Shown in pieces: positions 19,252-59,644 of a stretch of DNA of 64,000 bases (positions are counted from its first letter, which is position 1; every line of letters begins with the position of its first letter). The stretch spans positions 811 to 64,810 of the forward strand of contig JAIYBN010000001.1 of the NCBI GenBank assembly GCA_027488515.1. Reading direction: 5' to 3'. The stretch comes from Pseudomonadota bacterium (GTDB taxonomy: Bacteria > Bdellovibrionota > UBA1018 > CAIMNF01). The notes under the pieces were generated by a model. The model saw only the letters and a program-made list of their open reading frames with translations, was not told the origin of the DNA and did no database searches. The translations under genes and the position numbers were made by a program.

Positions 19252-22200
19252 TGTTGAGTGGGGGTAAGCAAATTCTGATTTTGGCCCTGACTCTTCTGGC
19301 AGGGTGCAGATTCGGTGGAAAAGTCACCTACGACGGAACTCCGTACCGTGAGTACAAGGAGACTCCGATCGTGGAACAGCCGACCGTGGTGAGCCCGACG
19401 GGAAACCCGCACTATTCCCGCTCGAGCCTCTTCAGCATCGAGGGGTTTTGCATGGTCGGAGATACCCTCAAACTCGAAGGTGCCGACACTCAAGAAACCG
19501 TATGTCAGCCCGATTCGAGTTATCAGTTCACGATCCTCAAGACATCGGATGGTGTGTACCCCTTCCAGATCACCCAACTGGACCTGAACGGGAACGCTTC
19601 GATTTCCAGTCCTGTCGTATGGATCAGAAAAACCAGTGTGACTGCACCCACCATCACGAGCCCCGCAGTGAATCCATTTTTATCGGCTGGTGCATCACTG
19701 ACTCTTTCGGGGGCATGTGAGACCGGGTCATTCGTTTCACTCGGCGGTGATGGAGCTGGTTCGACCGAGTGCTTGAACTCTGCATACTCATTGAATTTGC
19801 CAAAAGCATCGGATGGTGACTACACCATCCGGGTAGTTGCTGCGGATCCGGCTGGAAATTCAGCCGAAACCTCGATCGAATGGAGGAAACACGCTCTTGA
19901 GGTTTCTCCCGCTTCCGTATCCATCCGGGTGGACACCCCGCAGGCTTTCACCATCACCGGAGGATCCGGATCTTACACCATGGCCCTGAGTGAGAATCTC
20001 TCGGGTGGAACCCTGAATCAGTCGACGCGAACTTATACCACCGGTAGAACGGCATATGTCACCGATAGCTTGACCGTGACCGACTCTCTCGGTGTCAGCC
20101 AATCCATCGGAATCACTACTTTAGCGGGGGACCCGGACCACATTGAAATTGTGAGCGGAGATGATCAGACCGTGCCTGTCGGCACCGTTTTTCCACAACC
20201 GCTGGTGGCCAAGTTGGCTGACCCCTACGGAAACGGCATTCCTTCCTACCCACTGGTGGTGGTTCGGACTTCGGGTGATGCCATCCTTTCAGGAAGCTCC
20301 ATCCGGATCACTGATGCCTCAGGGAACATCACTCTTCCCGCAACCATGGGGTATTCCTCACTTCGAAGCACTTTCCGAGTCTCTCCTCTTTCCGGATCCC
20401 TTCCCGATCTTGCAGGCAGTGGCGGAACCACCGTTTCATTCAAAGCTCGATCCTCCACATTGGGAACATCGTTATTTGGATCCGCATTCATGGCGGGGAA
20501 CACTCCCGTCTCAATGGTGGTGGCCAAGTTTGTCGACAGTGGTTTCGGTGACATCGCTGTTCTGAACCAAGCCGAAAACACAGTTGGAATTCTCATCGGG
20601 CGCGGGAACGGCCTTTTCGGAAAAATGAAAACCTACGGGCTGGGAGCCTGTTCCGGAGGAGTGAAAGCCGTATCAGGCGACTTGAACGAGGACGGACATG
20701 TCGATTTGGCGGTGGTCTGTAACGGATCCGGTCAGATTTCTCGTTTGCTCGGAAACGGCGATGGCACCTTTGCCATCGCTCAAGTGATGAACACGGTGGC
20801 AGTACCCTCTGGCTTGGTGCTGGCGGACTTGAACGGAGATTCCCATCTTGACCTCGCCACTGCATCGATGCAAGACAATGTGGCAGCAGTTCACTATGGC
20901 ACGGGAACCGGTGCGTTCGGATCGGCCCAAGAGTTCACAGTGGGGACCACCCCGGTGGCTCTGACCGTCATCGACTGGAATGAAGATGGCTTGAAAGACT
21001 TGGCTTTGGCTCACTCGGCAACCGGGAATGTCGGAGTTTTGTTCCGCAAAGCGGATGGAAGGTATGGAGACTTCACTGAAGGGTACTCCGGATCAGGACT
21101 GAACTCCATCACGACAGCCGATGCGGACGCCGACGGTCATCCTGACCTGATCACCACCAATTCCGTCGACACCAATCTGATCATCTTTTACGGTGACGGT
21201 CTTGGAAATCTCACCACGACCAGCAGCTTGACCACCGGCCTGTCTCCGAGCTCGGTGGTTGTGACCGATCTTGATCGTGACGGCAGAAAAGACCTGGTGG
21301 TGTCGAATACTGACGATATGAACCTCGGGACTTTCTATGGGGTGGGCACACGCCAGTTCAGTTTGCCTAAACTCGATTCGGTCAACGGGAGTCCGGTTTC
21401 TCTGGTGGTCTACGACTCAAACAGCGACACCGTCCCCGACATCTCTTTTGTGGATGTGGCAAACTCCACCGTCCGGGTACTTTCAGGCAACCCTCTGGGA
21501 CAGCTTGATTTTGTCAATCCAGTGGGGAATTCTCCCGCCCATCTGACATCCGGTGATTTTGATTCGGACGGATTTCGTGACGTGGTGGTGGTCAACCAAG
21601 GGTCCAATTCGCTCACCGTCTTCAAGGGCCTGGGGAACGGACATTTGACACTGAAATCGACGATCTCCACCGGCACCCAGCCAGTTTGGGTCGAAAGTGA
21701 GGATTTGAACCGCGACGGAAAATTGGACCTGGTCGTAGTGAACAAAGGGGGGAATTCGGCGGGGGTATTCATCGGAAAGGGCGACCTGACCTTCGAAATC
21801 ATGGTTCCCTACGGTACCGGTGACAATCCGTCCGGGGTGACCGTCGGAGATTTCAACCGGGATGGTCATTTGGATCTGGCCACCTCCAACCAGACCACAT
21901 CGAAGATCAGCCTCCTGACGGGAAATGGTGACGGGACCTTCAATCTCAAAGTCGACTCACTGACCGGCAGCGCTCCTGCGGGAATCGTTTCTGCAGACTT
22001 CAACGGAGACGGACTTCCGGATCTGGCCACCGTGAATTACTCTGACAGCTCGGTGAGTATCTTGATGGCGAACCCGGATGCAAGCTTTCGTGCTCCCGTC
22101 AATTATGCGACGGGTGGACTCCCGACGGGAATGGTCAGTGGATACTTCAACAGTGATCTATTGGTAGACTTGGCTGTGACGAACTTCGGAGACGGGACGA

Positions 22201-22520
22201 TCAGTGTCTTACACGGGGTTTCGGACGGATCGTTCTCAGCTCAAGTGGTTTACTCCGTGGATGCCAGCCCTGGAATTTTATTCGCCGGGGATTGGAACGG
22301 CAAAGGCCGGACCGACCTCATGGTTGCTCTCAACACCCAGAACGCTTTCGCATTCCTTCCCAGTATGGCCGGAGGGCAGTTCAATAACAGCTCGGAAATC
22401 TTCAACCAGGCTGGAGCGATTTCTGCGGTTTCGGGAACCGATCTCAATGGAGACGGGAAACTGGACGTTCTGGTGATCGATGGAACCAACAGCCTCTTGC
22501 AGGTGAGGCTCGGCCACTGA
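19248..22520 (+). CDS. Giant lipoprotein of 1090 aa, with N-terminal Ig-like domains and a C-terminal FG-GAP/VCBS (integrin-alpha-like) beta-propeller repeat array.
   Basis: The ATGA start/stop overlap with the upstream gene indicates translational coupling. Lipobox LAGC. More than 10 repeats of FG...DLNGDGHLDLA type. Confidence 0.85.
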   Translation: MMLSGGKQILILALTLLAGCRFGGKVTYDGTPYREYKETPIVEQPTVVSPTGNPHYSRSSLFSIEGFCMVGDTLKLEGADTQETVCQPDSSYQFTILKTSDGVYPFQITQLDLNGNASISSPVVWIRKTSVTAPTITSPAVNPFLSAGASLTLSGACETGSFVSLGGDGAGSTECLNSAYSLNLPKASDGDYTIRVVAADPAGNSAETSIEWRKHALEVSPASVSIRVDTPQAFTITGGSGSYTMALSENLSGGTLNQSTRTYTTGRTAYVTDSLTVTDSLGVSQSIGITTLAGDPDHIEIVSGDDQTVPVGTVFPQPLVAKLADPYGNGIPSYPLVVVRTSGDAILSGSSIRITDASGNITLPATMGYSSLRSTFRVSPLSGSLPDLAGSGGTTVSFKARSSTLGTSLFGSAFMAGNTPVSMVVAKFVDSGFGDIAVLNQAENTVGILIGRGNGLFGKMKTYGLGACSGGVKAVSGDLNEDGHVDLAVVCNGSGQISRLLGNGDGTFAIAQVMNTVAVPSGLVLADLNGDSHLDLATASMQDNVAAVHYGTGTGAFGSAQEFTVGTTPVALTVIDWNEDGLKDLALAHSATGNVGVLFRKADGRYGDFTEGYSGSGLNSITTADADADGHPDLITTNSVDTNLIIFYGDGLGNLTTTSSLTTGLSPSSVVVTDLDRDGRKDLVVSNTDDMNLGTFYGVGTRQFSLPKLDSVNGSPVSLVVYDSNSDTVPDISFVDVANSTVRVLSGNPLGQLDFVNPVGNSPAHLTSGDFDSDGFRDVVVVNQGSNSLTVFKGLGNGHLTLKSTISTGTQPVWVESEDLNRDGKLDLVVVNKGGNSAGVFIGKGDLTFEIMVPYGTGDNPSGVTVGDFNRDGHLDLATSNQTTSKISLLTGNGDGTFNLKVDSLTGSAPAGIVSADFNGDGLPDLATVNYSDSSVSILMANPDASFRAPVNYATGGLPTGMVSGYFNSDLLVDLAVTNFGDGTISVLHGVSDGSFSAQVVYSVDASPGILFAGDWNGKGRTDLMVALNTQNAFAFLPSMAGGQFNNSSEIFNQAGAISAVSGTDLNGDGKLDVLVIDGTNSLLQVRLGH

Positions 22521-22619
22521 GTCCATCCGGACACTGTCAATTTTGCCACAGTCCAGACCCCCCTCTTTTTTGCTAAACTAAAAGTGAAGGCAAGTCGTTA
22601 AGAACCTTAGAGGTTTCGG

Positions 22620-25600
22620 ATGTTTTGGGCGACTGTTTCAACAGGTTGGGGGGGATGCCTGAGAGTGGTTTTACCGCTCTTGTTGGTGGCTCTTTCTGCA
22701 TGTTCGATCGATGTCCCACTCAATGATGTCCGGGTCAAAGGGATCACTTTCACTTCACTCGAGGAATTGTCCTACAACTCCAGCCAAGCCTCGATCCGGA
22801 TCCGGGGAAACAATTACTTCCCTGACTCAAATCCCCTGACCACGATTCGCTTTCATTCGGATTCGATCTGCAGTTCAAGTCCCCTCGGAGAAGGCCCCGT
22901 CCGGACCTTCATCGATCCGGGAATCACAGCAGAAGTGTCGAGTACGCAAAAGACCGAGATTTGGGCATCGAACCATACGAATGACAAATGTGTTTACGTC
23001 ACCACCTATGACCCCCTTCATACGGCTCCTCCGGCGCCGCTCTTTCTCTCCTTTGATCCGGCTCCGCCTTCGACAGTGGTCTCTGCTCCGAGAATCTTCG
23101 GTGAGGTATCCGGCAATACCGTGAGTGTCAGCCTTTACGATGATTCGACCTGTGGTCACCTCATCGCTACTGGAAGCTCAGATGAGTTCACCACGGTCGG
23201 GATCGGACTGACTCTTGGTCCCGATCGTGAAACTGAAGTTTATGGAAGGTCCTTCGAACCGTTTGGAAACGGTTCAGCATGCGTGTTTCTGGGAGCGTAT
23301 TCACACGACTCTTCTGCCATCGGCGGGCCTGAACTCACCAGCGTACTCCCGGTTTCCCCCAATCGGACATCCACAACACCTCGCCTGTCCGGTAATCTTC
23401 CTGATGGCGGAACCCAAATCAAATTCTATTCTGATGCGGGATGCAAGGTCGAGATCAACTCCGGCACTTCGGAGGAGTTTTCGACTGCAGGGATCCTCCT
23501 CACGGTCGCTGAGAACCAGAAGCTCGGCGTATGGGCAAAAAATCTGGACGGGGACGGCCACTCCTCTTTTTGCACCTACTTGACCACCTACCAACACGAC
23601 AACCTCCCGCCGACTGCACCGGTGTTCACTTCCACCATTCCCGTTTCTCCGAGCGGTACGACCCTCTACCCCAAAGTGATAGGATCGATTGCCGCGGATG
23701 CGACTCAAGTCAGATTCTATAATAATCGGGCGTGTACTGTCGGAATCGGCTCAGGTACCCGCGCTGCCTACATCTCCACCGGGATTCCGGTCAGCGTGAC
23801 CGAGAACGACACCACGGTAATTTACGGTGCTTCGGTCGATGCTGCGGGCAATGCATCGAATTGCGTGGAATTGGCCTTCTTCGTTTCCGATACCATTCCT
23901 CCGGACCCACCGGTTTACGCCGGGACCGATCCGACTTCACCGACAAATAAAAGCTTCACTCCCAAAATCGAAGGGGGCGTTTCGGCTGATACCGAGACTG
24001 TCTCCCTCTTTTCAGACATATCCTGCCAGAGCCAAATCGGAACCGGACCTGCAACAGACTTCATTGCGGCGGGAATTCAGGTCACGGCAGGGAACAACGT
24101 TCCAACAACGATCTATGCGAAGTCCTACGACTTGGTTGGAAATGGAACCGAGTGCACCTACCTGACCACCTATGATCACTCCACCGCCATCCCACCTGCT
24201 CCCGTGTACCAGACCGCAAATCCGGTCACTCCGACCAATGTGACCAACAAGCCCTTTTTGATTGGCTCTCTTTCTCCGATCATCACGCAGGTACAACTGT
24301 TTGCCGATGCTGCTTGCACGACCATGATCGGAGCAGGAACCGCGAAAAACTTCAAATCGACCGGGATCGGAATCACCGTGGCGATGAATGCCGTGACTCC
24401 GGTTTATTCAAAAGCTCTCGACAAATACGGAAATGAATCGGAGTGTACGTTCTTCGTCAATTACACTCATACGAACATCATCCCTTCGCCACCGGTCTTC
24501 CAGTCCTACTCCCCTACCCCTCCTACGCGAATCAGCTCCACTCCAATGATCAAAGGCACGGCTCCCACCAATCCGGTCGCGATCATTCCGAGTTCCCGTC
24601 TGGTGTTTTACGACAGCCAATTCTGTGTGAACCGGATCGGTCTCGGGAGCGTTGCCGACTTTCAAGGAGGCGGAATCCAGGTCAATGCTGGGGTGAATGC
24701 GATCACTAACATCCATGCTCGGGCCTTCGATGACGCCGGAAACGGCAGTCCCTGCACCAACATGTCCCCCTACACCCATGACATCCTCTTGCCGGGTCGC
24801 CCGATTTTCCTGTCCTCTTCTCCCGGAAGCCCGTCTTACAACCGGCAAGCATTGGTCAGGGGTTACCTGGGTCCGACAAGTGACTTCCTGTCTGCTTCAA
24901 CGGTCACCCTGTTTTCGGATGAGGCTTGTACCCAGCAAATCGGCCACGGTCCAGTCGGTCTGTTCACGACCACAGGAGTCGAGGCTACCATGCTTTTCAA
25001 CACCACCACCATGGTTTACGGGTTCACGACGAACATTGTCGGGTCTGACTCCATTTGTTCGTACTTGACCAACTTCCTACACGCCCCCGAGGGTGGGAGT
25101 GAGCTGATGGCAAGTGCACTCATGAACGGCTCGGTGATTCTGTCCTGGCTTCCTGACTTCGTGGCCAATCCCGCACCGGATTATCATGTGAAGCGGTCGA
25201 CTCGCCCTGGCGGACCTTATTCCACGATCCAGATCACCAAATCTGCCAACTTCAAAGATGTCTACACCACGAATGGTGAAACTTACTACTACATCATTGA
25301 ATCGATCAACTCGACCGGAAAGAGCGTGTACTCCAACGAGGCAAACGCCCAAGCGCTCACTTCAAGACCGATCGCACCCACCTCAATCAGCGCCACTCCC
25401 GGCTCAGGGAAGGTATCCCTCGATTGGCAAGCGGACATCAAGGATTTGACCTATACCGTCCTGCGATCCTTCACATCTGGGGGTCCTTACCAAGTGCTCG
25501 CATCCCAGTTGAACACCACTTCTTACGTGGATGACACCGCTCCCAATGATCAGGCGGTCTACTACGTTGTCAAGGCAGTCAATCCGGCGGGTGTCAGTCC

Positions 25601-28600
25601 GGCATCCCCCGAAGCTTCGGCCATGGCCAAGGACCAGCCACCCGCTCCGACACGCCTGACTGCAGCTTGGGCGATCGGTGCATGCGGATACGGAACGACC
25701 GGTGTGATGTTGACCTGGAGTGCCCCGGCGTACCAGAGCGGATTCTTTGTGAACTTTGCTACCACCAGTGGCGCGACACAGAGGATTGCGCGGGTCACTG
25801 GTACCTCCTACCTTTCATGTATGCCGACTTGGGGTGGGAATGTCGATCCGAACTACCCCTTACCCCCTGACTATGAAGAATACTATACGGTAGCGGCAGA
25901 CTGGGGAGGTTACCCGGGAGCCCAATCGAACGAAGTGGTCCTGAACCATGTCATGCCCACCTTGAGCCTCACACCCGGAAATAATGAAATCGTAGTAGAC
26001 TGGACACCGGCCGGGAACGCACCTTCTTACATTCTCAGACGTGCTCTTTCGCCGAATGGACCGTGGACCGTCATTGGCAATATTTCGGGGAGCTACTACC
26101 TCGACTCCTCTGTCACCAACGGAACGGCTTACTACTACACGGTGGAGCCGGTATACGTTGCGGGAACCCAGTACGGGATCATTTCCACATATGCATCAGC
26201 CATCCCCGGTCCGAATCCGGGTGCTCCCACCAATCCAAAGCTGATCATTGCTAACAATCGCGCCTATTTGCGCTGGACCGCACCCACTCATTATGCAGGG
26301 TTCAATGTCTATTCAGCATCGGCACCGGGTGGCCCTTGGACCTTGCGGTACACTTCTCCAATCAACGAATGGCAAGACCTGGTCCCGCAATTCGGCATGA
26401 ATTACTATCGGGTCACAACACGTTGGGGCGAAAGCTATGAATCGGCCCCGACGGCGACTCTTTCATTCCGAAACGGGGTGACCACCACGATCAATGCGAC
26501 TGCCAATGCCACAGCTGTCACAGTGACTTGGAACTCCGTGATCGGGGCATCGAAGTACATTTTGAAGCGAAGCACCACTTCGAGAGGGCCGTACACGGTC
26601 ATCTCGAGCAATGCGGCCAGCCCCTATACAGACTTGGCCGTCATCGCAGACACCGCCTACTACTACGTGGTGGCCGCCGAGTTTGCTGACACTACCCAAG
26701 GACAAGATTCAGCCGAAACCAGTGCCATGCCTGGAAACGGTAAAGTCCCTACAGGCTTGACGGTCACCTCGGTCGGCTCGAACACCGTGAACTTGACTTG
26801 GGGTCGGGTCACCGGGGCGAGTGGCTATCGGGTTTACTGGGGTCTGACCAATAACGGACCCTATGACCAAATCCCACTCATGAGTTCGGTCAACTCGATC
26901 TCTATTCCGAGCTTGAATGCGGACACAACCTACTACTTCAAGGTCACTTCATTTTCTCCGGGAGAGTCGACTCGATCCGCACAAATTGCCGCAACCACCC
27001 GGAACACACCATCCGCTCCCTTGGTGGTAGCCGGAAACAACTCAGTGAAGGTGGACTGGGGCGGAGTGAGCGGGGTATCGGGTTACAATGTTCAGCGATC
27101 CACCGACGGGACTACTTTCACCACGATCGCATCGAACCTCTCGACCTTTACTTTGACTGATACAGGACTCACGAACGGACAGATTTATTTTTACCGGATT
27201 ATCGCGGTATTCTCGAACGGTTCCCAGACCTCTCCCACCAGCACATCAGTGACTCCGGGCGTGGTCCCGCGGGTCCCGGCTGGATTGGCAGTCGTCGGGA
27301 ACTCGAACGGTACCGAAATCACGCTCACGTGGGCGCCGGTCCCGGGAGCAACCAGTTATGGAATCTACACCTACCAAGGAGGCACCTACACCTCCTACGG
27401 GTCCAGCACCAACAACTCCGAGCAGCTCTTCGGGCAGGTGGAAGGGACTCCCATTTCATTTGCAGTGACCGCACTCAACGGGACGAACGAGTCCGGCTAT
27501 TCTTCCGTGGTGACAGTGGTCCCCTCGAACTCGGGCACTGCTCCAACGGCGATCATGTCTGGTAGTGCTGTACAAATCACCTGGTCGAGTGATCCGTACG
27601 CATCCGCATACACCCTGGAGCGTTCCGAAGATTCCATCAACTTCCAAGCGATCGCTACAGGGATCGCCACACTGTCCCATACTGACAGCGCAGTCATTTC
27701 GGGCCAGGCATATTTTTACCGCTACAGACCGGAATATACGGGAGGGCACATCGGAGCACCCTCGGCGACGAGCGCCCCTGTGACCCCGGGCAATTCCCTG
27801 CTGACTCCGGCAAACCTCGTGGCGAAAGCCAGCGATGTGGCCCAGGTCTCGCTACAATGGGTTCAATCTCCCAATGCTGTATCCTACAGCGTTTACCGGA
27901 GTGGCACAGCTGGCGGGCCCTATGTATTCAAGGCATCAGTGACAGCGCCGGATACATTCTATGTGGACAACACCGTCATCCCTGGATCGGCGTACTATTA
28001 TGTGGTCACTTCTGTGAATGATTCCGGGGTCAATTCTCCGTACTCCAATGAATCTGGAGTCGACTTCACAGTGAGTGTTCCTTCAGGCCTGGCAGCCAAT
28101 CCGGCCAATGGGACCACCCAGTTGAGTTGGAATCCCGCCGGAGGGGCCAACCAGTATTATCTATACCGCTCTCTTGAAGAGACCGGATCTTATTCACTGA
28201 TCTATTCAGGGGCATCCACCAGCTTCATTGATCCGGACATCACTCATGGAGTCGACTACTACTACAAGGTGGCGGCTAGGTTCTCAGGCGCGGGCACTTC
28301 TCATACCTCGGCAGCCGTCATGGCGACCGGGATCGCGACCTTGGACCTCGTAGTGCCGATCGAACTCACCGATCAACCCTTGGCGTCGGACGTGAATGAA
28401 GTGACTTTCGAGAGTACTCAAACCAGCTTCGACCCGGACGACTATGACGGAAGCAGAACCTATTCTCTTGAAACAGTGGCCATGAATCTGGACTCGACCG
28501 ATCGGAGTCTCAAGTGGGTGGATTCGAACGGAAGTGAAGTGGGTGAAGTGGTCATCACTGCCGGCACGACCGCTCCTACCCTGTTCCGGAACACCATCAC

Positions 28601-29528
28601 GATCCCGTCGGGTCTGACAGCATATCGACTCAGGTCCCAGGGAACTACTGAGCCTGCACAGCTTCAAGTGATGAGTGCACGGCTGATGGTGAAGCAAGTC
28701 GGAGCGACGCGGACGAAGCTGTACTTCCCACTCCTTTCCAAGTCTTCAACCCCGTCCTCATCTGATTCCTTGAATCCATTGCATGGCACCATGAGTACGG
28801 ACTACTCGACTCTTCCTTCAGCACAACGATTTACCAGACACCTTTCCGCTCAATCCACCCTTGGAGAGTTCAACAGCTGGGAGCTGGAAGCAGTTGTTTC
28901 TGCCCAACAAGACGCTATCGGCAGCTTTGCTCTCAGAAATTTGAGCCAGAATGCATTGGTCGAAGACTCCCAGACCTACTTCAAATCCGACACCGTCACG
29001 CTCTCGAGAGTGCCGATCTCGGACGGACTCGAAAACTTCTCCACTGCCAATGAGGACAATCAGTATGACCTTGTTGTCCGATGCGACCGTAATTGCACGA
29101 ACTCGGTACAGATCTTCAAAGCAGGCCTGTGGCTGAAGGTGCTCAACCTTTCCCAGGTAGAGGTCGTTCAACGACTCACCCTAGGCGCGTCCTATCCTGA
29201 AGGGGCTCCGGTCTTGACTGATTCGCGTGCAGTGGTTGACCTGAGTGGATATTCGAATCCATCTTTCGGACTGAATGTAACCGCCTCCACTCCGATGATG
29301 ACGATCTTGGATGTTTTGTTGTCCTCCTCGGGCACTTCGAACTCATCCACGAGCGGCCTGAACCCGGTCCCAGGATCGACTCTTTCGTTCGGATTACCGG
29401 ACATGACGACACAGGCTACGCCGATGAATTTGAGCCTCACGAACGGAGATCGCCTCGTGGTGGAAGTGAGTGGGCAGGCGGGGGCTGTGGTGCGGGAGGC
29501 GGGGCTGGTGATTCGTGCACACCGCTAA
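22620..29528 (+). CDS. Giant lipoprotein of 2302 aa. It contains about 8 tandem ~100-aa two-Cys Ig-like repeats, then about 11 fibronectin type III domains, then a ~400-aa C-terminal domain.
   Basis: Lipobox LSAC. Recurring C.YLTTY.HD..(L/I)PP.PV(F/Y) repeat boundaries. FN3 signatures (YYYVV, GVS.YS, W..V.GA..Y). Confidence 0.85.
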   Translation: MFWATVSTGWGGCLRVVLPLLLVALSACSIDVPLNDVRVKGITFTSLEELSYNSSQASIRIRGNNYFPDSNPLTTIRFHSDSICSSSPLGEGPVRTFIDPGITAEVSSTQKTEIWASNHTNDKCVYVTTYDPLHTAPPAPLFLSFDPAPPSTVVSAPRIFGEVSGNTVSVSLYDDSTCGHLIATGSSDEFTTVGIGLTLGPDRETEVYGRSFEPFGNGSACVFLGAYSHDSSAIGGPELTSVLPVSPNRTSTTPRLSGNLPDGGTQIKFYSDAGCKVEINSGTSEEFSTAGILLTVAENQKLGVWAKNLDGDGHSSFCTYLTTYQHDNLPPTAPVFTSTIPVSPSGTTLYPKVIGSIAADATQVRFYNNRACTVGIGSGTRAAYISTGIPVSVTENDTTVIYGASVDAAGNASNCVELAFFVSDTIPPDPPVYAGTDPTSPTNKSFTPKIEGGVSADTETVSLFSDISCQSQIGTGPATDFIAAGIQVTAGNNVPTTIYAKSYDLVGNGTECTYLTTYDHSTAIPPAPVYQTANPVTPTNVTNKPFLIGSLSPIITQVQLFADAACTTMIGAGTAKNFKSTGIGITVAMNAVTPVYSKALDKYGNESECTFFVNYTHTNIIPSPPVFQSYSPTPPTRISSTPMIKGTAPTNPVAIIPSSRLVFYDSQFCVNRIGLGSVADFQGGGIQVNAGVNAITNIHARAFDDAGNGSPCTNMSPYTHDILLPGRPIFLSSSPGSPSYNRQALVRGYLGPTSDFLSASTVTLFSDEACTQQIGHGPVGLFTTTGVEATMLFNTTTMVYGFTTNIVGSDSICSYLTNFLHAPEGGSELMASALMNGSVILSWLPDFVANPAPDYHVKRSTRPGGPYSTIQITKSANFKDVYTTNGETYYYIIESINSTGKSVYSNEANAQALTSRPIAPTSISATPGSGKVSLDWQADIKDLTYTVLRSFTSGGPYQVLASQLNTTSYVDDTAPNDQAVYYVVKAVNPAGVSPASPEASAMAKDQPPAPTRLTAAWAIGACGYGTTGVMLTWSAPAYQSGFFVNFATTSGATQRIARVTGTSYLSCMPTWGGNVDPNYPLPPDYEEYYTVAADWGGYPGAQSNEVVLNHVMPTLSLTPGNNEIVVDWTPAGNAPSYILRRALSPNGPWTVIGNISGSYYLDSSVTNGTAYYYTVEPVYVAGTQYGIISTYASAIPGPNPGAPTNPKLIIANNRAYLRWTAPTHYAGFNVYSASAPGGPWTLRYTSPINEWQDLVPQFGMNYYRVTTRWGESYESAPTATLSFRNGVTTTINATANATAVTVTWNSVIGASKYILKRSTTSRGPYTVISSNAASPYTDLAVIADTAYYYVVAAEFADTTQGQDSAETSAMPGNGKVPTGLTVTSVGSNTVNLTWGRVTGASGYRVYWGLTNNGPYDQIPLMSSVNSISIPSLNADTTYYFKVTSFSPGESTRSAQIAATTRNTPSAPLVVAGNNSVKVDWGGVSGVSGYNVQRSTDGTTFTTIASNLSTFTLTDTGLTNGQIYFYRIIAVFSNGSQTSPTSTSVTPGVVPRVPAGLAVVGNSNGTEITLTWAPVPGATSYGIYTYQGGTYTSYGSSTNNSEQLFGQVEGTPISFAVTALNGTNESGYSSVVTVVPSNSGTAPTAIMSGSAVQITWSSDPYASAYTLERSEDSINFQAIATGIATLSHTDSAVISGQAYFYRYRPEYTGGHIGAPSATSAPVTPGNSLLTPANLVAKASDVAQVSLQWVQSPNAVSYSVYRSGTAGGPYVFKASVTAPDTFYVDNTVIPGSAYYYVVTSVNDSGVNSPYSNESGVDFTVSVPSGLAANPANGTTQLSWNPAGGANQYYLYRSLEETGSYSLIYSGASTSFIDPDITHGVDYYYKVAARFSGAGTSHTSAAVMATGIATLDLVVPIELTDQPLASDVNEVTFESTQTSFDPDDYDGSRTYSLETVAMNLDSTDRSLKWVDSNGSEVGEVVITAGTTAPTLFRNTITIPSGLTAYRLRSQGTTEPAQLQVMSARLMVKQVGATRTKLYFPLLSKSSTPSSSDSLNPLHGTMSTDYSTLPSAQRFTRHLSAQSTLGEFNSWELEAVVSAQQDAIGSFALRNLSQNALVEDSQTYFKSDTVTLSRVPISDGLENFSTANEDNQYDLVVRCDRNCTNSVQIFKAGLWLKVLNLSQVEVVQRLTLGASYPEGAPVLTDSRAVVDLSGYSNPSFGLNVTASTPMMTILDVLLSSSGTSNSSTSGLNPVPGSTLSFGLPDMTTQATPMNLSLTNGDRLVVEVSGQAGAVVREAGLVIRAHR
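22990..25210 (+). repeat. Intragenic tandem repeat array: about 8 repeats of ~300 bp, each encoding a ~100-aa two-Cys domain.
   Basis: Periodic recurrence of (S/T)xC(T/V)(Y/F)L(T/G)(T/A)Y.H and PP(A/S/D)P(V/L)(F/Y) motifs in the translation. Confidence 0.7.
25210..28300 (+). repeat. Intragenic tandem array of about 11 FN3-encoding units, each ~270-300 bp.
   Basis: Recurring YYY(V/K)V, GxSxxS and LxWxxV motifs at roughly 90-100 aa spacing. Confidence 0.65.
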
Positions 29529-45082: not shown

Positions 45083-45961
45083 ATGGTACCGATCCACTAC
45101 ACGCATTGTCGCACTCTCTGCAAAGGTGACGCGGATTCCTTTTTCAAGGATCTCCCCGAAAGTGGTTTTTCCATTGTGGGAACCAGGTCCCCGCAGAGTC
45201 GATCGATCCGCCTGGTGGATGAAACCGTGGACTCTCTCAAAGGATCGGGATTGACCGTCATCTCCGGGCTCGCCCGTGGAATCGACGAAGCCGCCCACCG
45301 GGCCGCACTCCGGGCCGGTCTCCGGACTCTCGCCATTGTCGGTTCCGGCATCGATGTGGATTACCCCGCCGGTTCCGCCCGACTCAAAGAGGACATTGTG
45401 AACAGCGGAGGAATGATTCTATCCCCTTTTCCGGATGGAACACCTCCGTTACCGAGACATTTCCACGAGCGGAACCGCCTCATCGCCGAGTGGGCCCGGG
45501 CGGTTTGGGTGGTGGAAGGAGCTGCGGTCTCGGGAACCTTGAACACCGCTCAGTGGGCATCCAGGCTCGACCGTGATCTTTACGCCACACCGGCTTTTCC
45601 GGGTGATCCCTGCTTCAGCGGGAATGAAAAACTGCTTTCACGCTCCCGACCGGAACGCCATCCCTTCGCGCTACCCTTCTACGGAGTGAGCAGCCTTCTC
45701 GACACTTGGCCCGAACTGCTCGAACCTCAGAAGAGCTTCTTCCACTCACTTCCCGATCATCCCTTGGACCGACTGGTGACCCGACTCGAGTCCGAGTTCG
45801 GCGAATGCCGCCTTCCCCTGCTCCAGGAGCATTGGAGTCCGGACGATTGGAGCGGTTTCACCCGGGTGCTTCAGGAGGCGCTCGATGCAGGACGGATCAG
45901 GATCGAACCCACCGGCCAGATCCGGGTTCAACTCCCCTCTCAAACTCCCGGAAAATCCTGA
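45083..45961 (+). CDS. dprA: DNA-processing protein DprA/Smf.
   Basis: GLARGIDEAAHRAAL...LAIVGSGIDVDYP...ILSPFP...RNRLIA...VVEGAAVSGTLNTA motif series. Confidence 0.8.
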   Translation: MVPIHYTHCRTLCKGDADSFFKDLPESGFSIVGTRSPQSRSIRLVDETVDSLKGSGLTVISGLARGIDEAAHRAALRAGLRTLAIVGSGIDVDYPAGSARLKEDIVNSGGMILSPFPDGTPPLPRHFHERNRLIAEWARAVWVVEGAAVSGTLNTAQWASRLDRDLYATPAFPGDPCFSGNEKLLSRSRPERHPFALPFYGVSSLLDTWPELLEPQKSFFHSLPDHPLDRLVTRLESEFGECRLPLLQEHWSPDDWSGFTRVLQEALDAGRIRIEPTGQIRVQLPSQTPGKS

Positions 45962-47112
45962 ATACGAAGGACATCCCCCGGAGAGTGATCCACCGCCCTT
46001 TGGACCGCCCGCTCCAGCTCTCCGAGATTGCCCGGCCAATCCCGCGAAACCAGCCAGGAAAGGACCTCCCGGTCGATCGACTTCACCGGAACTCCACGGC
46101 GACGGCAAGCCCGCGAAAGGAAATACGGTAAAAGGTCCGACTCAAAATCCGCCGTCCGGTTCCGGAGTGGCAGCAGACCGAGCACCGAAGCGGTGAGTTT
46201 GTAATAAAGCTCGACATGAAACAGACCTTCGCGGACCTCACGGTCGAGATCCCGCGAACTGGTGGCGATGATCCTGAAGTCCGTCGGGAACAAGCGGACT
46301 CCGCCCACCCTCGAAAAACTCTCGGTCTCGAGCATGTTGAACACCGCATTCTGCGCCTCGATCGAAAGACTGTCGATCTCTTCGATGAACAGCGTCCCTC
46401 CTTGGGCCAGTTCGAAAACCCCCGGCTTGCTGAAGTGATTCACCGGACTCGCACCTTTTTCGACCCCGAACAACTCACTCAGCTGGAAGACCGGGGGGAG
46501 AGTGGCGCAAGAAACCTGGACGAACGCGTGCCGGGACCGGTCGGACTTTCTGTGGATTTCATAGGCCACGGACCGTTTGCCGGTACCGACCTCTCCTGAC
46601 ATCCAGACCGATGAGTCGGTTTTGGCAATCCTCTCCACTTCCTCACGCAAACGGATCGTGGAGGGCTCACGACCGAACAAAGGCACAGGCACCGGCCCGA
46701 CTCCGACCGCACTCATGATTTCCAGTGCGGGCTCGCGTCGCCTGAACCGGCGACTCTGGCAGGCTTTTTCGAGGGTCCGCAAAAGATCCCCGTGATCGAA
46801 AGGTTTCACCACGAAATCAAAGGCCCCCGCCTTGAGAGCAGAAACCGCTCGCTCGACGGTCGCGTAAGCCGTGAGCAGGATCACCGGAAGATCCGGGGTG
46901 TATTGATGACAATACTGTAGCACTTCCATGCCGTCATGATCGGGCATCTGAAGATCGGTGAGCACCGCCGCGAGATCCTCGGTGTCGATCACATTCTTGG
47001 CCTCTTCGAAGCCAGAGAATGCCACGGCGTCGTAACCGGCACGAACGAGCGTGGCCTCGAGAATCATCCTGAGATTGGATTCATCATCAATGATGACGAC
47101 CTTATCGCGCAT
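45940..47112 (-). CDS. NtrC-family (sigma-54-activator-like AAA+) response regulator that is atypical: it lacks the GAFTGA motif and the C-terminal HTH.
   Basis: Receiver domain, then an AAA+ domain (GEVGTGKRSVA, ELFG, WPGNLGELE). The region equivalent to GAFTGA reads GASPVNHFSKPG. The protein ends about 20 aa after the WPGN box. Confidence 0.75.
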   Translation of the reverse strand: MRDKVVIIDDESNLRMILEATLVRAGYDAVAFSGFEEAKNVIDTEDLAAVLTDLQMPDHDGMEVLQYCHQYTPDLPVILLTAYATVERAVSALKAGAFDFVVKPFDHGDLLRTLEKACQSRRFRRREPALEIMSAVGVGPVPVPLFGREPSTIRLREEVERIAKTDSSVWMSGEVGTGKRSVAYEIHRKSDRSRHAFVQVSCATLPPVFQLSELFGVEKGASPVNHFSKPGVFELAQGGTLFIEEIDSLSIEAQNAVFNMLETESFSRVGGVRLFPTDFRIIATSSRDLDREVREGLFHVELYYKLTASVLGLLPLRNRTADFESDLLPYFLSRACRRRGVPVKSIDREVLSWLVSRDWPGNLGELERAVQRAVDHSPGDVLRIQDFPGV

Positions 47113-49063
47113 CCGGATACCCCACTTCCACCCGGGTTCCTTGACCCGGCACCGATTCGAGTTTGAGCCATCCCCGGTCGAACCGGATCAGGCGTTCGCA
47201 AATGGAAAGTCCGAGTCCGGTCCCGTTACCCGAGGAGGTGAAAAAAGGCTCGAGCACCCTTGACCTGACCGCATCGCTCATCCCGATCCCGTTGTCCGTC
47301 ACCGAGAACCCCCCCGCCTCGACCCGAACAACAATCTCGGCATGTCGCACCCCTTCGAGGGCTTTGACCGAGTTCTGGATCAGATTGGAAAGAACCTGCT
47401 GGATGGAATCCGGAACGACCTCCACCGGAACCGGGTGATCCCGTCCCTCGAAACGGAGTTGAACCGTCGAAGGAACGAGGAATGCCGTGTTGGTGATCGC
47501 GCGGGGAAGAAGCGCACAGAGATCGATCCGTTGGCGACCGCCTTGGGGATTCCTCGAGAAATCCAGAAACTGCCCCACCAGCCGGTTCAACCGGGCGGTT
47601 TCATCTCGGATGACCTCGACGAAGGGGCCTGTGTCTTGAAGCAGGTCGGCCGCACCCCGGATGGATCCCAAGGGGTTCCGGATCTCGTGAGCCAGACCGG
47701 CCGCCATCTCTCCGAGAAGGATCAATCGCTCGCGTTCACGGACTTCACCGATCCGGGCCAAGCGGAAAACGTTGGCACCGAGTTCACTCATCAGTTCGGG
47801 AGCCGCCGGGAAGGGGAAAAAACGCTCGTCCGGACTCCACCGTCCGGCCGGAAGGCGGATGCGGATGAGTACGACGACTTTCTCGTTCGAATATGCAGGA
47901 AGGATCCCGTCAAAACCGGCCGCATCGAGATACTCGAGGATCATTTCGATCGGTCTACGACTCTCGCGGGTGTACAGTGCGTCCCGCTCCTGCTCGAGAA
48001 TTCCCCGGTGCAATACCGGAGGAAGCCCCTTCTCGCGGAGTTCGTAAAGGTAGGACTCCACATTTTCAGGCAAATCCACCCCTGCGGGATCGAGAGTGAT
48101 TTCCACCCTCTCGGCACCGTGGGTCTTCATGAAGAATTGCCTCAGGCCCTCCTGCAAGTCTTCCAGCGATGTCACTGCAGAGAGAAGGATCCGGAACCGG
48201 TCGACGGTCTCCTTCTCTTCGTCGTGTGTCCGTGGAAAGAGCTTACGACCGATGAAGCGGAAGAAAGTCACCAACGGACTCCAAAGAGCGAGTACCGCGA
48301 AGGAAATCAAAAAGGAATTGAGCAAGAACAGGGGAAACGACCTGCTGATCGTGTTGTACAAAAGGGCGAAAAATCCGGTCAGCACGAGGGACAGGGTGAG
48401 CACCGCCAGAAACCGTGACACCAGGGAGTCGAGTCCGAAAAGTTTTCTCGGATTGATGATCTGGCTCGCGAAACCCAGATACACGGCGAACAAGAGGTTG
48501 CCGATCGACGGAATCCCCGTCCCCATCCAAGGAATGTGGTCGAAGGTGCAGAAAGCAAGCGAGAGGATCGGCCCGAGATACAGGAACGTTTTCCGGCCTC
48601 TCGGTAGGTTTCCGGAGCCGGGTCCGGAACTCATTCGGGCTTCGAGGAAAAGCAGATGGAAGTACTCCAGCAGGATGAATGAAGGCCAGAATCCGGTCGC
48701 GAGCTTGAATGCCTCACCATGACCGAGAGAAAACGCGATCAGAAAACACAGCACCGCACCGCCGGCCAACGACATCAGAAAAAGGAGCCGACTGAAGGCA
48801 TCGACTTTCCGGACGAGAAAGCTCGACATGAGCAGTACCCCGGTCGGTGCGAGCAGTACGTTACAGAAAAGATGGATGTCGTAAGAAAGACGACCGAAAA
48901 GAGTCGCATGCGACACGAAACTCAGGGCCCAGACCGAGACGAGAAAGCACAGGAAGGAGAAGAGCACCGAAACCCGGTTCCTCCAGTGTCTGAAGAGGGT
49001 CCACACCCCGATCGTCAGGGCCACGAGACCGAGGATGAGGGAAGTCTGCTTCAACAATTCCAT
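47102..49063 (-). CDS. Sensor histidine kinase with a multi-TM (about 8 helices) N-terminal sensor domain.
   Basis: HisKA (LAHEIRNPL) and HATPase_c (GTGLGLSICERLI). It overlaps the downstream response regulator by 11 nt. Confidence 0.8.
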   Translation of the reverse strand: MELLKQTSLILGLVALTIGVWTLFRHWRNRVSVLFSFLCFLVSVWALSFVSHATLFGRLSYDIHLFCNVLLAPTGVLLMSSFLVRKVDAFSRLLFLMSLAGGAVLCFLIAFSLGHGEAFKLATGFWPSFILLEYFHLLFLEARMSSGPGSGNLPRGRKTFLYLGPILSLAFCTFDHIPWMGTGIPSIGNLLFAVYLGFASQIINPRKLFGLDSLVSRFLAVLTLSLVLTGFFALLYNTISRSFPLFLLNSFLISFAVLALWSPLVTFFRFIGRKLFPRTHDEEKETVDRFRILLSAVTSLEDLQEGLRQFFMKTHGAERVEITLDPAGVDLPENVESYLYELREKGLPPVLHRGILEQERDALYTRESRRPIEMILEYLDAAGFDGILPAYSNEKVVVLIRIRLPAGRWSPDERFFPFPAAPELMSELGANVFRLARIGEVRERERLILLGEMAAGLAHEIRNPLGSIRGAADLLQDTGPFVEVIRDETARLNRLVGQFLDFSRNPQGGRQRIDLCALLPRAITNTAFLVPSTVQLRFEGRDHPVPVEVVPDSIQQVLSNLIQNSVKALEGVRHAEIVVRVEAGGFSVTDNGIGMSDAVRSRVLEPFFTSSGNGTGLGLSICERLIRFDRGWLKLESVPGQGTRVEVGYPDAR

Positions 49064-57404: not shown

Positions 57405-57815
57405 ATGAAGGATGCATTCAAAACCGTTCTGATTGCTGATGATATTCCCTATGTCCGTAAGACTCTGAAACAGATTCTTCAGAATCGCGGTTACCGGGTG
57501 GTGGGCGAGGCCGAAAACGGAGATGATGCCGTCCGCCTCTACTTCGAAACCAGGCCGGACCTCGTCATCATGGATCTGGTGATGCCCAGAATGAACGGTG
57601 TGGATGCCACGCGGGTGATTCTGAAGCGCGATCCCGATGCGAGGATCGTGATTCTCTCGGCGATGACCCAGGAGAACTTGGTGACCGAGGCCATCCAGGC
57701 CGGCGCCAAGGATTACGTGATCAAGCCTTTCCAGACAGACGAGGTCATGAGGGTCATTCAGGAAAGCCTTTCCACAGGCTCGATTCAAACCGCCGCTGCC
57801 GGCGGGGCCGCCTGA
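57405..57815 (+). CDS. Single-domain CheY-like response regulator (receiver only).
   Basis: Receiver motifs: DD, the phospho-acceptor Asp in LVIMDLVMP, and the conserved Thr/Lys near the C-terminus (KDYVIKPF). Confidence 0.8.
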   Translation: MKDAFKTVLIADDIPYVRKTLKQILQNRGYRVVGEAENGDDAVRLYFETRPDLVIMDLVMPRMNGVDATRVILKRDPDARIVILSAMTQENLVTEAIQAGAKDYVIKPFQTDEVMRVIQESLSTGSIQTAAAGGAA

Positions 57816-57825
57816 GGTTGGGTGA

Positions 57826-58116
57826 ATGTTCTCTTTCCTCTCGGCGATCCTGAAATATTCGATCTTCGCTTTGGTCGTGCTCGTGTTCTCCCATGTGATC
57901 GAGATCCAGGGGGTCACGGTTTCACGCCACGTCGAGAAGTGGGTGAAAATCGCAGGGGTCTACAACCCCGAGCGACAGGCAAAATTGCTCACCGAGGAAT
58001 ACAAGGCCAGCCTCGAAGCCAGGATGAAAGAACTCCACAAACTGGATGCTGACATCAGTCCCGAAGATCAAAAAGCGTTGAGGCAGATCATCGAGCGTTC
58101 GGAACAAAAAAAGTGA
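57826..58116 (+). CDS. Small membrane-anchored protein of 96 aa, with an N-terminal TM and a charged helical tail. Hypothetical.
   Basis: Hydrophobic N-terminus (ILKYSIFALVVLVF) and a K/E-rich C-terminus. Confidence 0.45.
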   Translation: MFSFLSAILKYSIFALVVLVFSHVIEIQGVTVSRHVEKWVKIAGVYNPERQAKLLTEEYKASLEARMKELHKLDADISPEDQKALRQIIERSEQKK

Positions 58117-58129
58117 TGGTCGATCCGGA

Positions 58130-58309
58130 TCACCGGCCAGAGCCCGCGTTCTGAGCCGAGCGTCCTTTTGCCACCGAAAGAGAAGCCAGGACCAGATCCG
58201 CACGATTCTTCGAGCAGAGCGCTTTGCCGCTTTGTTTGCTCGAAACCACTGCAGCAGAAGCGGAAGATGCGAAGGCAGTCAGGAGGGCGATCAAAGTCAT
58301 GATTTTCAT
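58130..58309 (-). CDS. Small secreted cationic peptide, paralogue A: 59-aa precursor with a predicted signal peptide.
   Basis: MKIMTLIALLTAFASSASA signal, GGAG RBS, and an internal start within the annotated 97-aa ORF. It is a paralogue of 58550..58735. Confidence 0.55.
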   Translation of the reverse strand: MKIMTLIALLTAFASSASAAVVSSKQSGKALCSKNRADLVLASLSVAKGRSAQNAGSGR

Positions 58310-58549
58310 AGTCACTCCGATGGGGTGGGAAGATTCCCGTTTTCGCACAACGTACCGCTCACCCAGAGATAATGCACGGGGTGTGCCAAAAAGCGGGGTT
58401 CCAGACCATAGTGAATTAATCAATCATTACATGATCTTGGATAAATAAACCCATTCCGTTTCTCCTCAGAATGACGATCGGGAAGACGACGACTGTCTCA
58501 ACTTTAGACAGGGCCGCTTCCCGATGTACAGAGGGCATGATTTTGGAGA

Positions 58550-58735
58550 TCAGCGTCCAGATCCGGCTTGATTCGACTTGGATACCTGCGATCCGGAACC
58601 GGCTGCGAACTTGACCTGGTGGTCTTGTTCGTTTTTGGTGCAATGAGCTTTACCGGATTGCTTGCTCGACACGACTCCGCCGATAGCAGGGGATGCAAAT
58701 GCAGTAAATAGGGCCAAAAGGGTGAAGATTTTCAT
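58550..58735 (-). CDS. Small secreted cationic peptide, paralogue B: 61-aa precursor.
   Basis: MKIFTLLALFTAFASPAIG signal, GGAGG RBS, and the shared motifs VVSSKQSGKAxCxKN and C-terminal AGSGR. Confidence 0.55.
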   Translation of the reverse strand: MKIFTLLALFTAFASPAIGGVVSSKQSGKAHCTKNEQDHQVKFAAGSGSQVSKSNQAGSGR

Positions 58736-58951
58736 ACGTCCTCCGACGGTTCTCATTCTCTCAACTTCCGCTCGACGTACCACTTGTCCGGAGTATTGCA
58801 GAGGATGTGCCAATCCGGGCGCGCACCCCACGAAGATCGCAAAGTCCGGTCATTTCAGAGGATTTTCTCTACAAAACGACCGAAGCCCCACGGCCTCCCG
58901 GACTGAAAGGCCCTTTCTCTCCTGACAGCTGTCCAAATTCCATACAGGTTT

Positions 58952-59644
58952 TCAGCTGTCGTTTGCGTTCCACGCTTCGAGCTCCCGAACCAGACGCGCC
59001 TCCCAAAGGTGGCGCCAATCGGGCCCCTTGAGATCGGACGGGATCCCCTCCAGGTCCGAGATCCGGGTCATGACCTCTCCTCCGAAGCCGCAGGGAGAGA
59101 AATCCCGGAAAGGCATCAGGTCATTCACCACGTTCATGGCAAGGCCGTGGTAAGTCACCCACTTCCGGACTGCCACACCGACCGATGCGAGCTTCAGCTT
59201 TCCCGACCAAACCCCGCTTCCAGCGGAGTCCCGATGGACCCGGACTCCTTCGCGAGCGAGAGCGCGGATCCACCACTCCTCGAGGAATCGAACATACTTT
59301 TCAACGTCCCGGCCCAAGTGCGCCCCCAACCGACCCGTGCCTCCCAAGGAAAGGATCGGATAGACCACAAGCTGCCCGGGCCCGTGCCAGGTCAAATCCC
59401 CTCCCCGCTCGATCTCCACATAATCCGTTCCGAGGGGGACGAGCGGAGGGGGCATGGCCCGATCTGACCTTTGCGCGGACCACTGGAGCCCGCGCCCCCG
59501 CGTGATCACCGGATGGTGCTCGCAAAAAATGAAGGTGTCGGAGATCTCTCCCCGGATCCTCTTTTCCAGGAGTTCCAACATGAGCGCATGGACCTCGGAG
59601 AACTTCCGCGTTCCTGGAAGGGAAAGGATCTCGAAACCCGTCAT
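58952..59644 (-). CDS. lipB: Lipoyl(octanoyl) transferase.
   Basis: RGG..TWHGPGQLV, K(x)GVAV..TYHGLAMN and catalytic Cys (SPCGF) motifs. Confidence 0.9.
   Translation of the reverse strand: MTGFEILSLPGTRKFSEVHALMLELLEKRIRGEISDTFIFCEHHPVITRGRGLQWSAQRSDRAMPPPLVPLGTDYVEIERGGDLTWHGPGQLVVYPILSLGGTGRLGAHLGRDVEKYVRFLEEWWIRALAREGVRVHRDSAGSGVWSGKLKLASVGVAVRKWVTYHGLAMNVVNDLMPFRDFSPCGFGGEVMTRISDLEGIPSDLKGPDWRHLWEARLVRELEAWNANDS

Follow-up and report, generated by a model that had tools for sequence, protein, structure and literature searches.

Tandem genes for small, probably exported single-cysteine peptides with predicted sigma-54 promoters and enhancers in an uncultured freshwater Bdellovibrionota lineage

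What do two very small adjacent genes in a genome of the Bdellovibrionota encode, and how might they be expressed? The genes, here called A and B, lie on the minus strand within positions 58130-58831 of a 64,000-nucleotide stretch of DNA (positions 811 to 64,810 of contig JAIYBN010000001.1, assembly GCA_027488515.1), which we refer to in full as the window. An earlier, sequence-only reading had proposed that they are tandem paralogs for small secreted peptides with a single cysteine, and candidates for antimicrobial, signaling or envelope-modulating functions. We found that both are true protein-coding genes under purifying selection, that they belong to an unnamed family with a common architecture, and that each is preceded by a conserved sigma-54 type promoter, an upstream enhancer and a conserved leader. 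These three elements had not been mentioned before, and we rate them as the most informative features of the locus. We consider it probable, with considerable room for doubt, that the product is a small envelope or extracellular peptide exported by Sec, that its transcription depends on sigma-54 and an activator, and that the cysteine-bearing N-terminal ~20 residues are the functional module.

Both open reading frames (ORFs) were present on the minus strand in the span originally given (Table 1; other loci and proteins are designated by L and P numbers). The two proteins are identical at 34 of 61 positions (56%; E = 5e-19 for the pair), which confirms that the genes are tandem paralogs, and they have in common the N-terminus MKI[MF]TL[IL]AL[LF]TAFAS, the core VVSSKQSGKAxCxKN and the C-terminus AGSGR, all as described in the earlier reading. 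The precursor of gene A would consist of a signal peptide of ~19 amino acids (aa) and a mature peptide of ~40 aa; the mature lengths, about 40 aa for A and 42 aa for B, depend on the predicted cleavage sites. The distance from the stop codon of B to the ATG of A, previously put at about 240 bp, is 240 bp, and the ribosome-binding sites are good, as had been noted. Longer ORFs of 97 and 93 aa, beginning at TTG and GTG, had been judged to extend too far upstream, and our results agree: the homologs are nearly all 58-72 aa long, and the extension spans the sigma-54 box described below, where the indels among orthologs are not multiples of three. Similar N-terminal extensions have also been called in P0005 (85 aa) and a few other homologs.

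The genes are conserved as proteins. The sequence-only reading had allowed that the conserved region might be an RNA or a repeat rather than a protein; we detected conservation of nucleotides in the leaders and not in the coding sequences. Among orthologous copies from metagenomic contigs and three metagenome-assembled genomes (MAGs), the ratio of non-synonymous to synonymous divergence (pN/pS) was 0.04-0.23 for informative pairs, and third codon positions took most of the substitutions (5/0/29 and 7/1/36 changes at positions 1/2/3 in two examples). The ratio was 0.00 in two pairs that are nearly identical and differ by no more than one non-synonymous change. Between A and B most synonymous sites differ (pS 0.78, pN 0.29). 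Because of this, and because conservation among the orthologs is of the coding type, the likeness of A and B is not that of a DNA repeat. Synonymous sites between the two are saturated, so the residues they share have been kept by selection and not by recent gene conversion. Constraint was uneven along the proteins. The core had a pN/pS of 0.01 in B (codons 20-38) and 0.15 in A, the signal part 0.11-0.12, the tail 0.25 and the last five codons 0.00-0.07. Synonymous divergence was itself lower in the signal-peptide codons 1-19 (58253-58309 and 58679-58735), with a pS of 0.32 versus 0.54-0.70 further downstream, and this halving suggests an extra constraint on the nucleotide sequence near the translation start.

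The family to which A and B belong is small. A single-sequence search of 5.8 billion proteins recovered only 10 clusters, a profile search of 1.84 billion representatives recovered 14 matches, and a profile search of the 5.8-billion set recovered 35 clusters, all of them unnamed and with no Pfam domain. The gene B protein is identical to P0009, and the homologs of gene A are P0001-P0005. The family was found only in freshwater metagenomes and Bdellovibrionales MAGs; the named genomes are freshwater MAGs labeled Bdellovibrio sp., Bdellovibrionales bacterium or 'Proteobacteria bacterium'. Members are 58-72 aa long in all 35 clusters except P0005, whose 85 aa are an overcall. They share one plan, consisting of MK and a hydrophobic stretch of 10-12 residues, S-P-A-x-(A/G), the core, and a variable tail rich in Ser, Lys, Ala and Gln. 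The core is [GAEND]-V-V-x-S-K-x-x-G-K-A-H-C-x-K-[NM]-x-x-D, in which the cysteine is invariant and the histidine before it is frequent. K2, S15, S24, G28, K34 and D38 are nearly invariant.

The earlier statement that these small proteins resemble nothing recognized was borne out, and the database check proposed with it yielded the unannotated family just described. Searches of Pfam and NCBIfam with both peptides and all 29 aligned family members gave only sub-threshold noise (TSP_Ig-like, E = 0.04; TrbK, E = 0.08; DUF7096, E = 0.01). A profile search of the PDB gave one chance match (E = 0.09), and a scan of the whole window at the Rfam gathering thresholds gave zero matches. The family is novel in sequence, conceptually ordinary and taxonomically narrow.

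We called a sigma-54 promoter where GG at -24 and GC at -12 occur at a fixed spacing (TGGCAC-N5-TTGCW) and are conserved upstream of the gene. TGGCAC-N6-TGCW occurs exactly twice in the 64 kb (0.10 matches expected), 77 and 79 nt before the two ATGs. Upstream of all 17 family genes examined, which represent 12 distinct loci, there is a match to TGGCA[CT]-N6-TGC[AT] that lies 39-89 nt before the ATG. No sigma-70-like promoter was predicted on either strand of 57700-59100. A relaxed scan of the window, allowing one mismatch, gave 14 matches versus 9.6 expected, and so provides no evidence of further sigma-54 promoters there.

The predicted enhancers (upstream activating sequences, UAS) have the palindromic pattern (C)TGT(C)-N9-(G)ACA(G), or in its shortest form TGT-N11-ACA. 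Across loci they occupy fixed positions, -101 to -137, within the range of about 80-150 bp upstream that we took as the criterion for an activator site. The A-type palindrome is centered at -114 in four of five genes (the window, L009, L010 and L011), and the fifth, L014, has one substitution in the right arm. The B-type palindrome is centered at -126 in the five loci with complete upstream DNA; L014 is cut at a contig end. At loci with a single peptide gene, palindromes are paired exactly 21 bp apart in five of six, with centers at -136/-115, -137/-116 (two loci), -126/-105 and -122/-101. L020 has the distal palindrome only, the proximal one carrying one substitution, and L021, the most divergent locus, also has a pair. 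The number of CTGTM-N9-GACAG matches expected in the window is 0.19. A third match to CTGTC-N9-GACAG, at 5469-5487, is inside dnaJ with no sigma-54 box nearby, and we treated it as chance. In the textbook layout for NtrC-family activators, two dimer sites are situated two helical turns apart and approximately 100-140 bp upstream of the -24/-12 box. The palindrome pairs and the box fit this layout. Each gene has its own predicted sigma-54 promoter and enhancer, and its expression in vivo would be expected to depend on sigma-54.

Transcripts starting at these promoters would carry leaders of about 50 nt. The mean identity of the leaders among orthologs was 87% (A) and 91% (B). For comparison, pS was 0.19-0.66 in the coding sequences set against the A leaders, and synonymous divergence was 40-70% in the comparison for both leader types. 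A box, AGCGG[CT]ACGT, is present near the putative 5' end of both transcripts, and a purine motif, GAGAG(A/U)A, is found 25-35 nt before the ATG. Both are kept in the distant loci L016-L020, and the purine motif is not kept in L021. From these comparisons the leader appears to be constrained at the nucleotide level, with the box and the purine motif conserved well beyond the neutral level. RNAalifold analysis of 16 leaders gave no consensus structure. The small hairpin in A-type leaders has one compensatory variant, in L011, and a hairpin predicted in B-type leaders (-10.6 to -12.6 kcal/mol) pairs the box with the start-codon region.

Strong rho-independent terminators follow the peptide gene in L016-L018, which indicates independent transcription units at those loci. 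Downstream of gene B in the window there is a nested hairpin that contains the enhancer of A (58477-58525), followed by a weaker terminator-like site. The enhancer palindrome of A sits inside an outer inverted repeat (ATCGGGAAG/CTTCCCGAT), and the gene B transcript may also use the region as a 3' hairpin. At the 3' end of gene A we saw no clear terminator. Its stop codon is 13 nt from the stop codon of the convergent gene, a gap so short that the 3' ends of the two transcripts may overlap.

Table 1. Positions of the two peptide genes, their expression signals and the convergent neighbor in the window.
Feature	Positions	Strand	Details
Gene A	58130..58309	(-)	ATG 58309-58307, stop 58132-58130, 59 aa, MKIMTLIALLTAFASSASAAVVSSKQSGKALCSKNRADLVLASLSVAKGRSAQNAGSGR
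Gene B	58550..58735	(-)	ATG 58735-58733, stop 58552-58550, 61 aa, MKIFTLLALFTAFASPAIGGVVSSKQSGKAHCTKNEQDHQVKFAAGSGSQVSKSNQAGSGR
Shine-Dalgarno of gene A	58315..58318	(-)	GGAG, 5 nt before ATG; invariant in 5 orthologs
Shine-Dalgarno of gene B	58740..58744	(-)	GGAGG, 4 nt before ATG; invariant in 6 orthologs
Sigma-54 type -24/-12 promoter of gene A (predicted)	58373..58388	(-)	TGGCACACCCCGTGCA; putative start near 58362
Sigma-54 type -24/-12 promoter of gene B (predicted)	58797..58812	(-)	TGGCACATCCTCTGCA; putative start near 58786
Enhancer (UAS) of gene A (predicted)	58477..58525	(-)	Palindrome CTGTC-N9-GACAG (58493-58511), center 114 nt upstream of -24 box
Enhancer (UAS) of gene B (predicted)	58922..58947	(-)	CTGTA-N9-GACAG (58929-58947), center 126 nt upstream of -24 box, then half-site CTGTCAG
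Leader of gene A (predicted)	58310..58362	(-)	~53 nt; box AGCGGTACGTTG (58348-58359); small hairpin GGGAA-TC-TTCCC
Leader of gene B (predicted)	58736..58786	(-)	~51 nt; box AGTGGTACGTCG (58773-58784); purine motif GAGAGAATGAGA
Terminator-like hairpin and T-rich tail	58451..58474	(-)	Downstream of gene B, weaker; conserved only in closest relative
Convergent neighbor gene	57826..58116	(+)	96 aa, N-terminal single transmembrane helix, charged coiled-coil-like tail, no family

We assessed export by rule, looking for a positive n-region, an h-region of 7-15 residues, a helix breaker, and small uncharged residues at -3 and -1. The N-terminal segment consists of MK, IFTLLALFTAF, and then ASP-A-I-G|G in B or ASS-A-S-A|A in A. 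All 29 aligned members have the MK n-region, 10-12 hydrophobic residues, a conserved A-x-A/G and polar sequence after it, and a proline is near-universal about 4-5 residues before A-x-A/G. Judged by the (-3,-1) rule, the segment looks in every respect like a Sec signal peptide that can be cleaved, in support of the signal peptides originally proposed. Because it satisfies all of the rules for a signal peptidase I substrate, we infer that the precursors are exported and cleaved to peptides of ~40 residues. Two other kinds of export signal were rejected. The signal of a lipoprotein would end in a lipobox, [LVI][ASTVI][GAS]C; there is none, and there is no Pfam match. Type IV pilins and pseudopilins carry class III signals, defined by Gly at position -1 relative to prepilin peptidase cleavage and by Glu at position +5 of the processed protein; in MK[ILVTM][FMLI]T[LIV][LI][AS]L, the segment present here, those two places are taken by Ile/Leu/Val and Ala/Ser, respectively.

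The cysteine lies ~13 residues after the AxA site and hydrophobic stretch, in the context GKA[HLF]C, GKINC or APGC. AlphaFold2 (AF2), run with the 29-sequence alignment, modeled a helix at residues 3-13 and a short helix at 34-46, with low confidence elsewhere (mean predicted local distance difference test score 57; predicted template modeling score 0.21). The quality was too low to look for related folds with it. This low-confidence model is consistent with disorder, and the mature peptide, including the variable tail, is probably largely disordered. The net charge of the mature peptide ranges from 0 to +7 across the family.

The peptide gene occupies one constant genomic slot in every locus. 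One flank consists of lipA, an E2 gene, lpd and lipB; a PAP2-like ORF is called there as well in some loci. The opposite flank, in convergent orientation, carries the genes for the 96-aa transmembrane/coiled-coil protein, a CheY-like receiver, two CNNM/CorC proteins and Lon. In L021, the most distant locus, the left neighbor is swapped for a trypsin-like gene and the 96-aa/CheY-like/CNNM flank is kept. The divergent loci L016-L021 have a single peptide gene in the slot, and two copies, in the order B then A, were found only in the clade of the window. Because distant relatives hold one copy in the same slot, the duplication is specific to this clade and the ancestral state is a single gene. 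The tandem arrangement and the shared AGSGR terminus that had drawn attention to the locus are therefore real in the window but confined to one sub-clade, and they are not general features of the family. B, with a GKAHC core and the ancestral leader motifs, is the ancestral-type copy, and A, with GKALC, the derived one.

The 96-aa gene is always beside the peptide gene, as the last gene of the CNNM-CNNM-CheY-like unit. A search for a name or a wider range for its product gave only 11 unnamed clusters, restricted to the clade, and its link to the peptide gene is one of position. Between lipB and gene B (58947-58960) the window is missing a PAP2-family ORF of ~640 bp that is present in its closest relatives (L001/L009/L015), where it is on the opposite strand and overlaps the end of lipB. 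Homology to these three loci restarts exactly at the edge of the gene B enhancer. In the single-copy relatives L016, L017 and the 54,974-bp contig of P0032 (locus coordinates ~1-1660), genes for an RHS/YD-repeat (DUF6531) protein and a protein of 71-94 aa precede lipA-E2-lpd-lipB; these may be a polymorphic toxin and its immunity protein. Elsewhere in the window, three consecutive giant ORFs (13372-29528, plus strand; 1959, 1090 and 2302 aa) contain fn3, Big_1, NHL and FG-GAP/VCBS-type repeats and probably encode large surface or adhesin-like proteins.

In the model that we favor, each gene would be a monocistronic unit for a small exported protein. Transcription would stay off until an enhancer-binding protein (EBP) of the NtrC family, in which a two-component system probably has its output, binds the TGT-N11-ACA palindrome or palindromes ~100-140 bp upstream and remodels the sigma-54 RNA polymerase that waits at the TGGCAC-N6-TGCA box. 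The ~50-nt leader would add a second, post-initiation layer of control or stability. The precursor of 59-61 aa would leave by the Sec route, with signal peptidase I cleaving it after A-x-A/G, and the ~40-residue peptide would be released into the periplasm or beyond. Its working part would be the first ~20 mature residues, (G/A)VVSSKQSGKA(H/L)C(T/S)KNxxD, and the remainder a fast-evolving, probably disordered tail rich in Ser, Lys and Ala. A lone invariant cysteine in an oxidizing compartment suggests an intermolecular disulfide or an adduct with a ligand or partner. The cysteine would thus most likely form a disulfide (A-A, B-B, A-B or with a partner protein) or bind a ligand. Among the functions initially put forward, this model favors an inducible envelope or signaling factor, and a lytic antimicrobial function is poorly supported.

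Several results weigh against this model. Neither rpoN nor a gene for a DNA-binding EBP was seen in the 64-kb window, and a scan of its six-frame translation for the GAFTGA motif gave zero matches. The sole EBP-like gene in the window by Pfam (45940-47112, minus strand, 390 aa) encodes an NtrC-like protein with a receiver domain, a sigma-54 interaction AAA+ domain and a lid, and it overlaps the gene for a histidine kinase of 653 aa (47102-49063, minus strand). The product has no C-terminal helix-turn-helix, and its GAFTGA loop is replaced by GASPVNHFSKPG. Because it is without a DNA-binding domain and an intact GAFTGA loop, it is unlikely to be the activator, and we rejected it as such; it would be an AAA+ regulator that works independently either of an enhancer or of sigma-54. 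All relatives come from metagenomes or MAGs. Nothing links the peptides to one pathway, and the synteny with the 96-aa/CheY-like/CNNM unit may be inherited and not functional. The main weaknesses are in the product itself: the region after the hydrophobic stretch is more positive than the N-terminus, a pattern that would also fit an uncleaved N-out/C-in membrane anchor by the positive-inside rule, and conservation of the hydrophobic segment (pN/pS 0.11-0.12) exceeds what a disposable signal peptide usually shows.

These weaknesses are the strengths of a different explanation, in which A and B are uncleaved small inner-membrane proteins whose N-terminal 20 residues form a transmembrane helix, with the tail on one side modulating a sensor or transporter. 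Such proteins have precedent in MgrB, SafA, AcrZ and MgtS of the enterobacteria, and candidate partners would be the neighboring CNNM/CorC proteins or a histidine kinase. I3-V22 is a mostly apolar run of 20 residues, its downstream flank carries +4 within 15 residues versus +1 at the N-terminus, and the segment is highly conserved between the two paralogs despite their saturated synonymous divergence. The peptide gene, moreover, always adjoins an operon for membrane proteins. On the other hand, the part that is strictly hydrophobic spans no more than 10-12 residues, the AF2 helix is broken at residue 13-14, and the near-universal proline followed by SPA-x-A/G is a signal peptidase I signature that is kept where the rest changes. 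In addition, the most conserved part of the protein, the core of B, is polar and outside the hydrophobic stretch. We regard membrane anchoring as unlikely, but as an explanation to be taken seriously.

The secreted product with its short, highly conserved 'epitope' and free tail, and the dedicated enhancer and sigma-54 layout throughout the family, could also be read as those of a peptide that diffuses as a signal: a two-component system would sense it, and the sigma-54 activator of that system would act back on the peptide promoter (autoinduction). The duplication with divergence of the tails in one clade would suit such a signal. However, in no locus does a sensor kinase or EBP accompany the gene, the sole nearby two-component system (45940-49063) has the degenerate activator, processing or export machinery like that of known peptide pheromones is absent, and the idea derives purely from architecture. 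We think autoinduction quite improbable. We attach a similarly low probability to a more elaborate proposal, that of a dedicated peptide signal or effector of uncultured freshwater Bdellovibrionota, with a two-component sigma-54 activator, a secreted 40-mer, the cysteine motif as ligand or reactive group, A/B heterodimers joined by a disulfide, and a regulatory leader mRNA. If true, there would be a peptide-based, activator-gated system for communication or prey interaction in a Gram-negative predator lineage.

Still less probable, in our estimation, is the idea first advanced for this locus, that the peptides are secreted cationic antimicrobials or prey-directed, bacteriocin-like peptides. 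The mature peptides of the window are positively charged (+4 for B, +6 for A), they have a signal peptide and are encoded in tandem, and cultured members of the Bdellovibrionales, the host lineage, are predatory. Yet the charge varies among members, being 0 to +2 in P0025-27 and P0032-36, and the maximum hydrophobic moment over 18 residues is low (0.17-0.50 in the family, 0.22-0.27 for the window pair), which argues against membrane lysis as a conserved function. Hydrophobic residues make up only 25% of mature B, and the conserved part is a polar cysteine motif rather than an amphipathic helix, with one short low-confidence helix in the AF2 model. There was no bacteriocin match in the PDB or Pfam, and no immunity, ABC exporter or modification gene in the flanks examined (3-6 kb on each side) at any locus. 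A locus for a ribosomally synthesized and post-translationally modified peptide or a class II bacteriocin would have a non-Sec leader and was rejected for the same lack of modification, export and immunity genes, the neighbors being lipA, E2, lpd and lipB on one side and the TM/CheY-like/CNNM/Lon genes on the other. A type I toxin-antitoxin-like pair of small hydrophobic toxins, suggested by the ~60-aa length, N-terminal hydrophobic helix, tandem copies, long nucleotide-conserved leader and a hairpin able to occlude the start region of B, is very improbable given a promoter-like site nowhere on the antisense strand (57700-59100), no Rfam match, a cleavable AxA site (by rule), a most conserved part that is polar, a single copy in a fixed syntenic slot over wide divergence that is neither mobile nor variable, and tightly activator-dependent sigma-54 promoters, which to our knowledge are not a feature of known type I toxins. 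An antisense or divergent small RNA overlapping the mRNA, which defines such systems, may nonetheless be present in an unrecognized form.

The exported, sigma-54-dependent peptide that we favor adds a well-delimited unnamed family (~35 clusters, no Pfam or NCBIfam model) to the catalog of small bacterial proteins. The scope is narrow, one uncultured freshwater lineage, and no general concept is changed so far. The conserved cis-element nevertheless provides a handle for finding, in Bdellovibrio-like bacteria, the activator that belongs to it and, through the activator, the signal that induces the genes. We found no paper on the sigma-54 regulons or RpoN of these bacteria that is relevant to the locus.

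Parts of this arrangement are found in known systems. MgrB, SafA, AcrZ and MgtS have an uncleaved transmembrane helix, sigma-70 promoters and two-component control, and MgrB has one or more extracytoplasmic cysteines. The window peptides resemble such regulators in being shorter than 70 aa with an N-terminal hydrophobic helix and, as in MgrB, a cysteine in the predicted extracytoplasmic part, but they have no sequence similarity to them and differ in the sigma-54 box and the predicted cleavage site. The entericidin genes (ecnAB) are tandem paralogs of 40-60 codons with export signals and their own promoters, and their products are lipoproteins, cleaved at a lipobox cysteine. Tandem small paralogs with export signals, each with its own promoter (predicted here), are thus common to both, whereas the cysteine of the window peptides is in K-A-[HLF]-C, well beyond the AxA site and not in a lipobox, and there is no match to the Pfam Entericidin family. 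ZraP of E. coli, encoded by zraP and activated by ZraSR, is a periplasmic protein of ~140 aa with a CpxP/Spy-like fold, encoded next to its regulators. A single-gene unit for a signal-peptide-bearing product, with a sigma-54 promoter and an upstream site for a two-component EBP (predicted here), is a likeness to ZraP; the window peptides, in contrast, would be ~40 aa after cleavage, with no detectable fold or family and no linked regulator.

The closest published likeness that we could verify in cis-elements is to GlrR (QseF), which acts at the sigma-54 promoters of glmY/glmZ and at rpoE P3 through several TGTC-N10-GACA palindromes that lie over 100 bp upstream (PMC3045617). The spacer is N9 in every locus here, one base shorter, the targets are protein-coding and the taxon is another, so we did not assign the locus to a GlrR/QseF regulon and note a resemblance only. 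That resemblance consists of a sigma-54 promoter with TGTC...GACA palindromes more than 100 bp upstream, and the GlrR targets are themselves small envelope-related transcripts. What is new in the present family is that the sigma-54 promoter is family-wide and accompanied by phased enhancer palindromes and a nucleotide-constrained leader.

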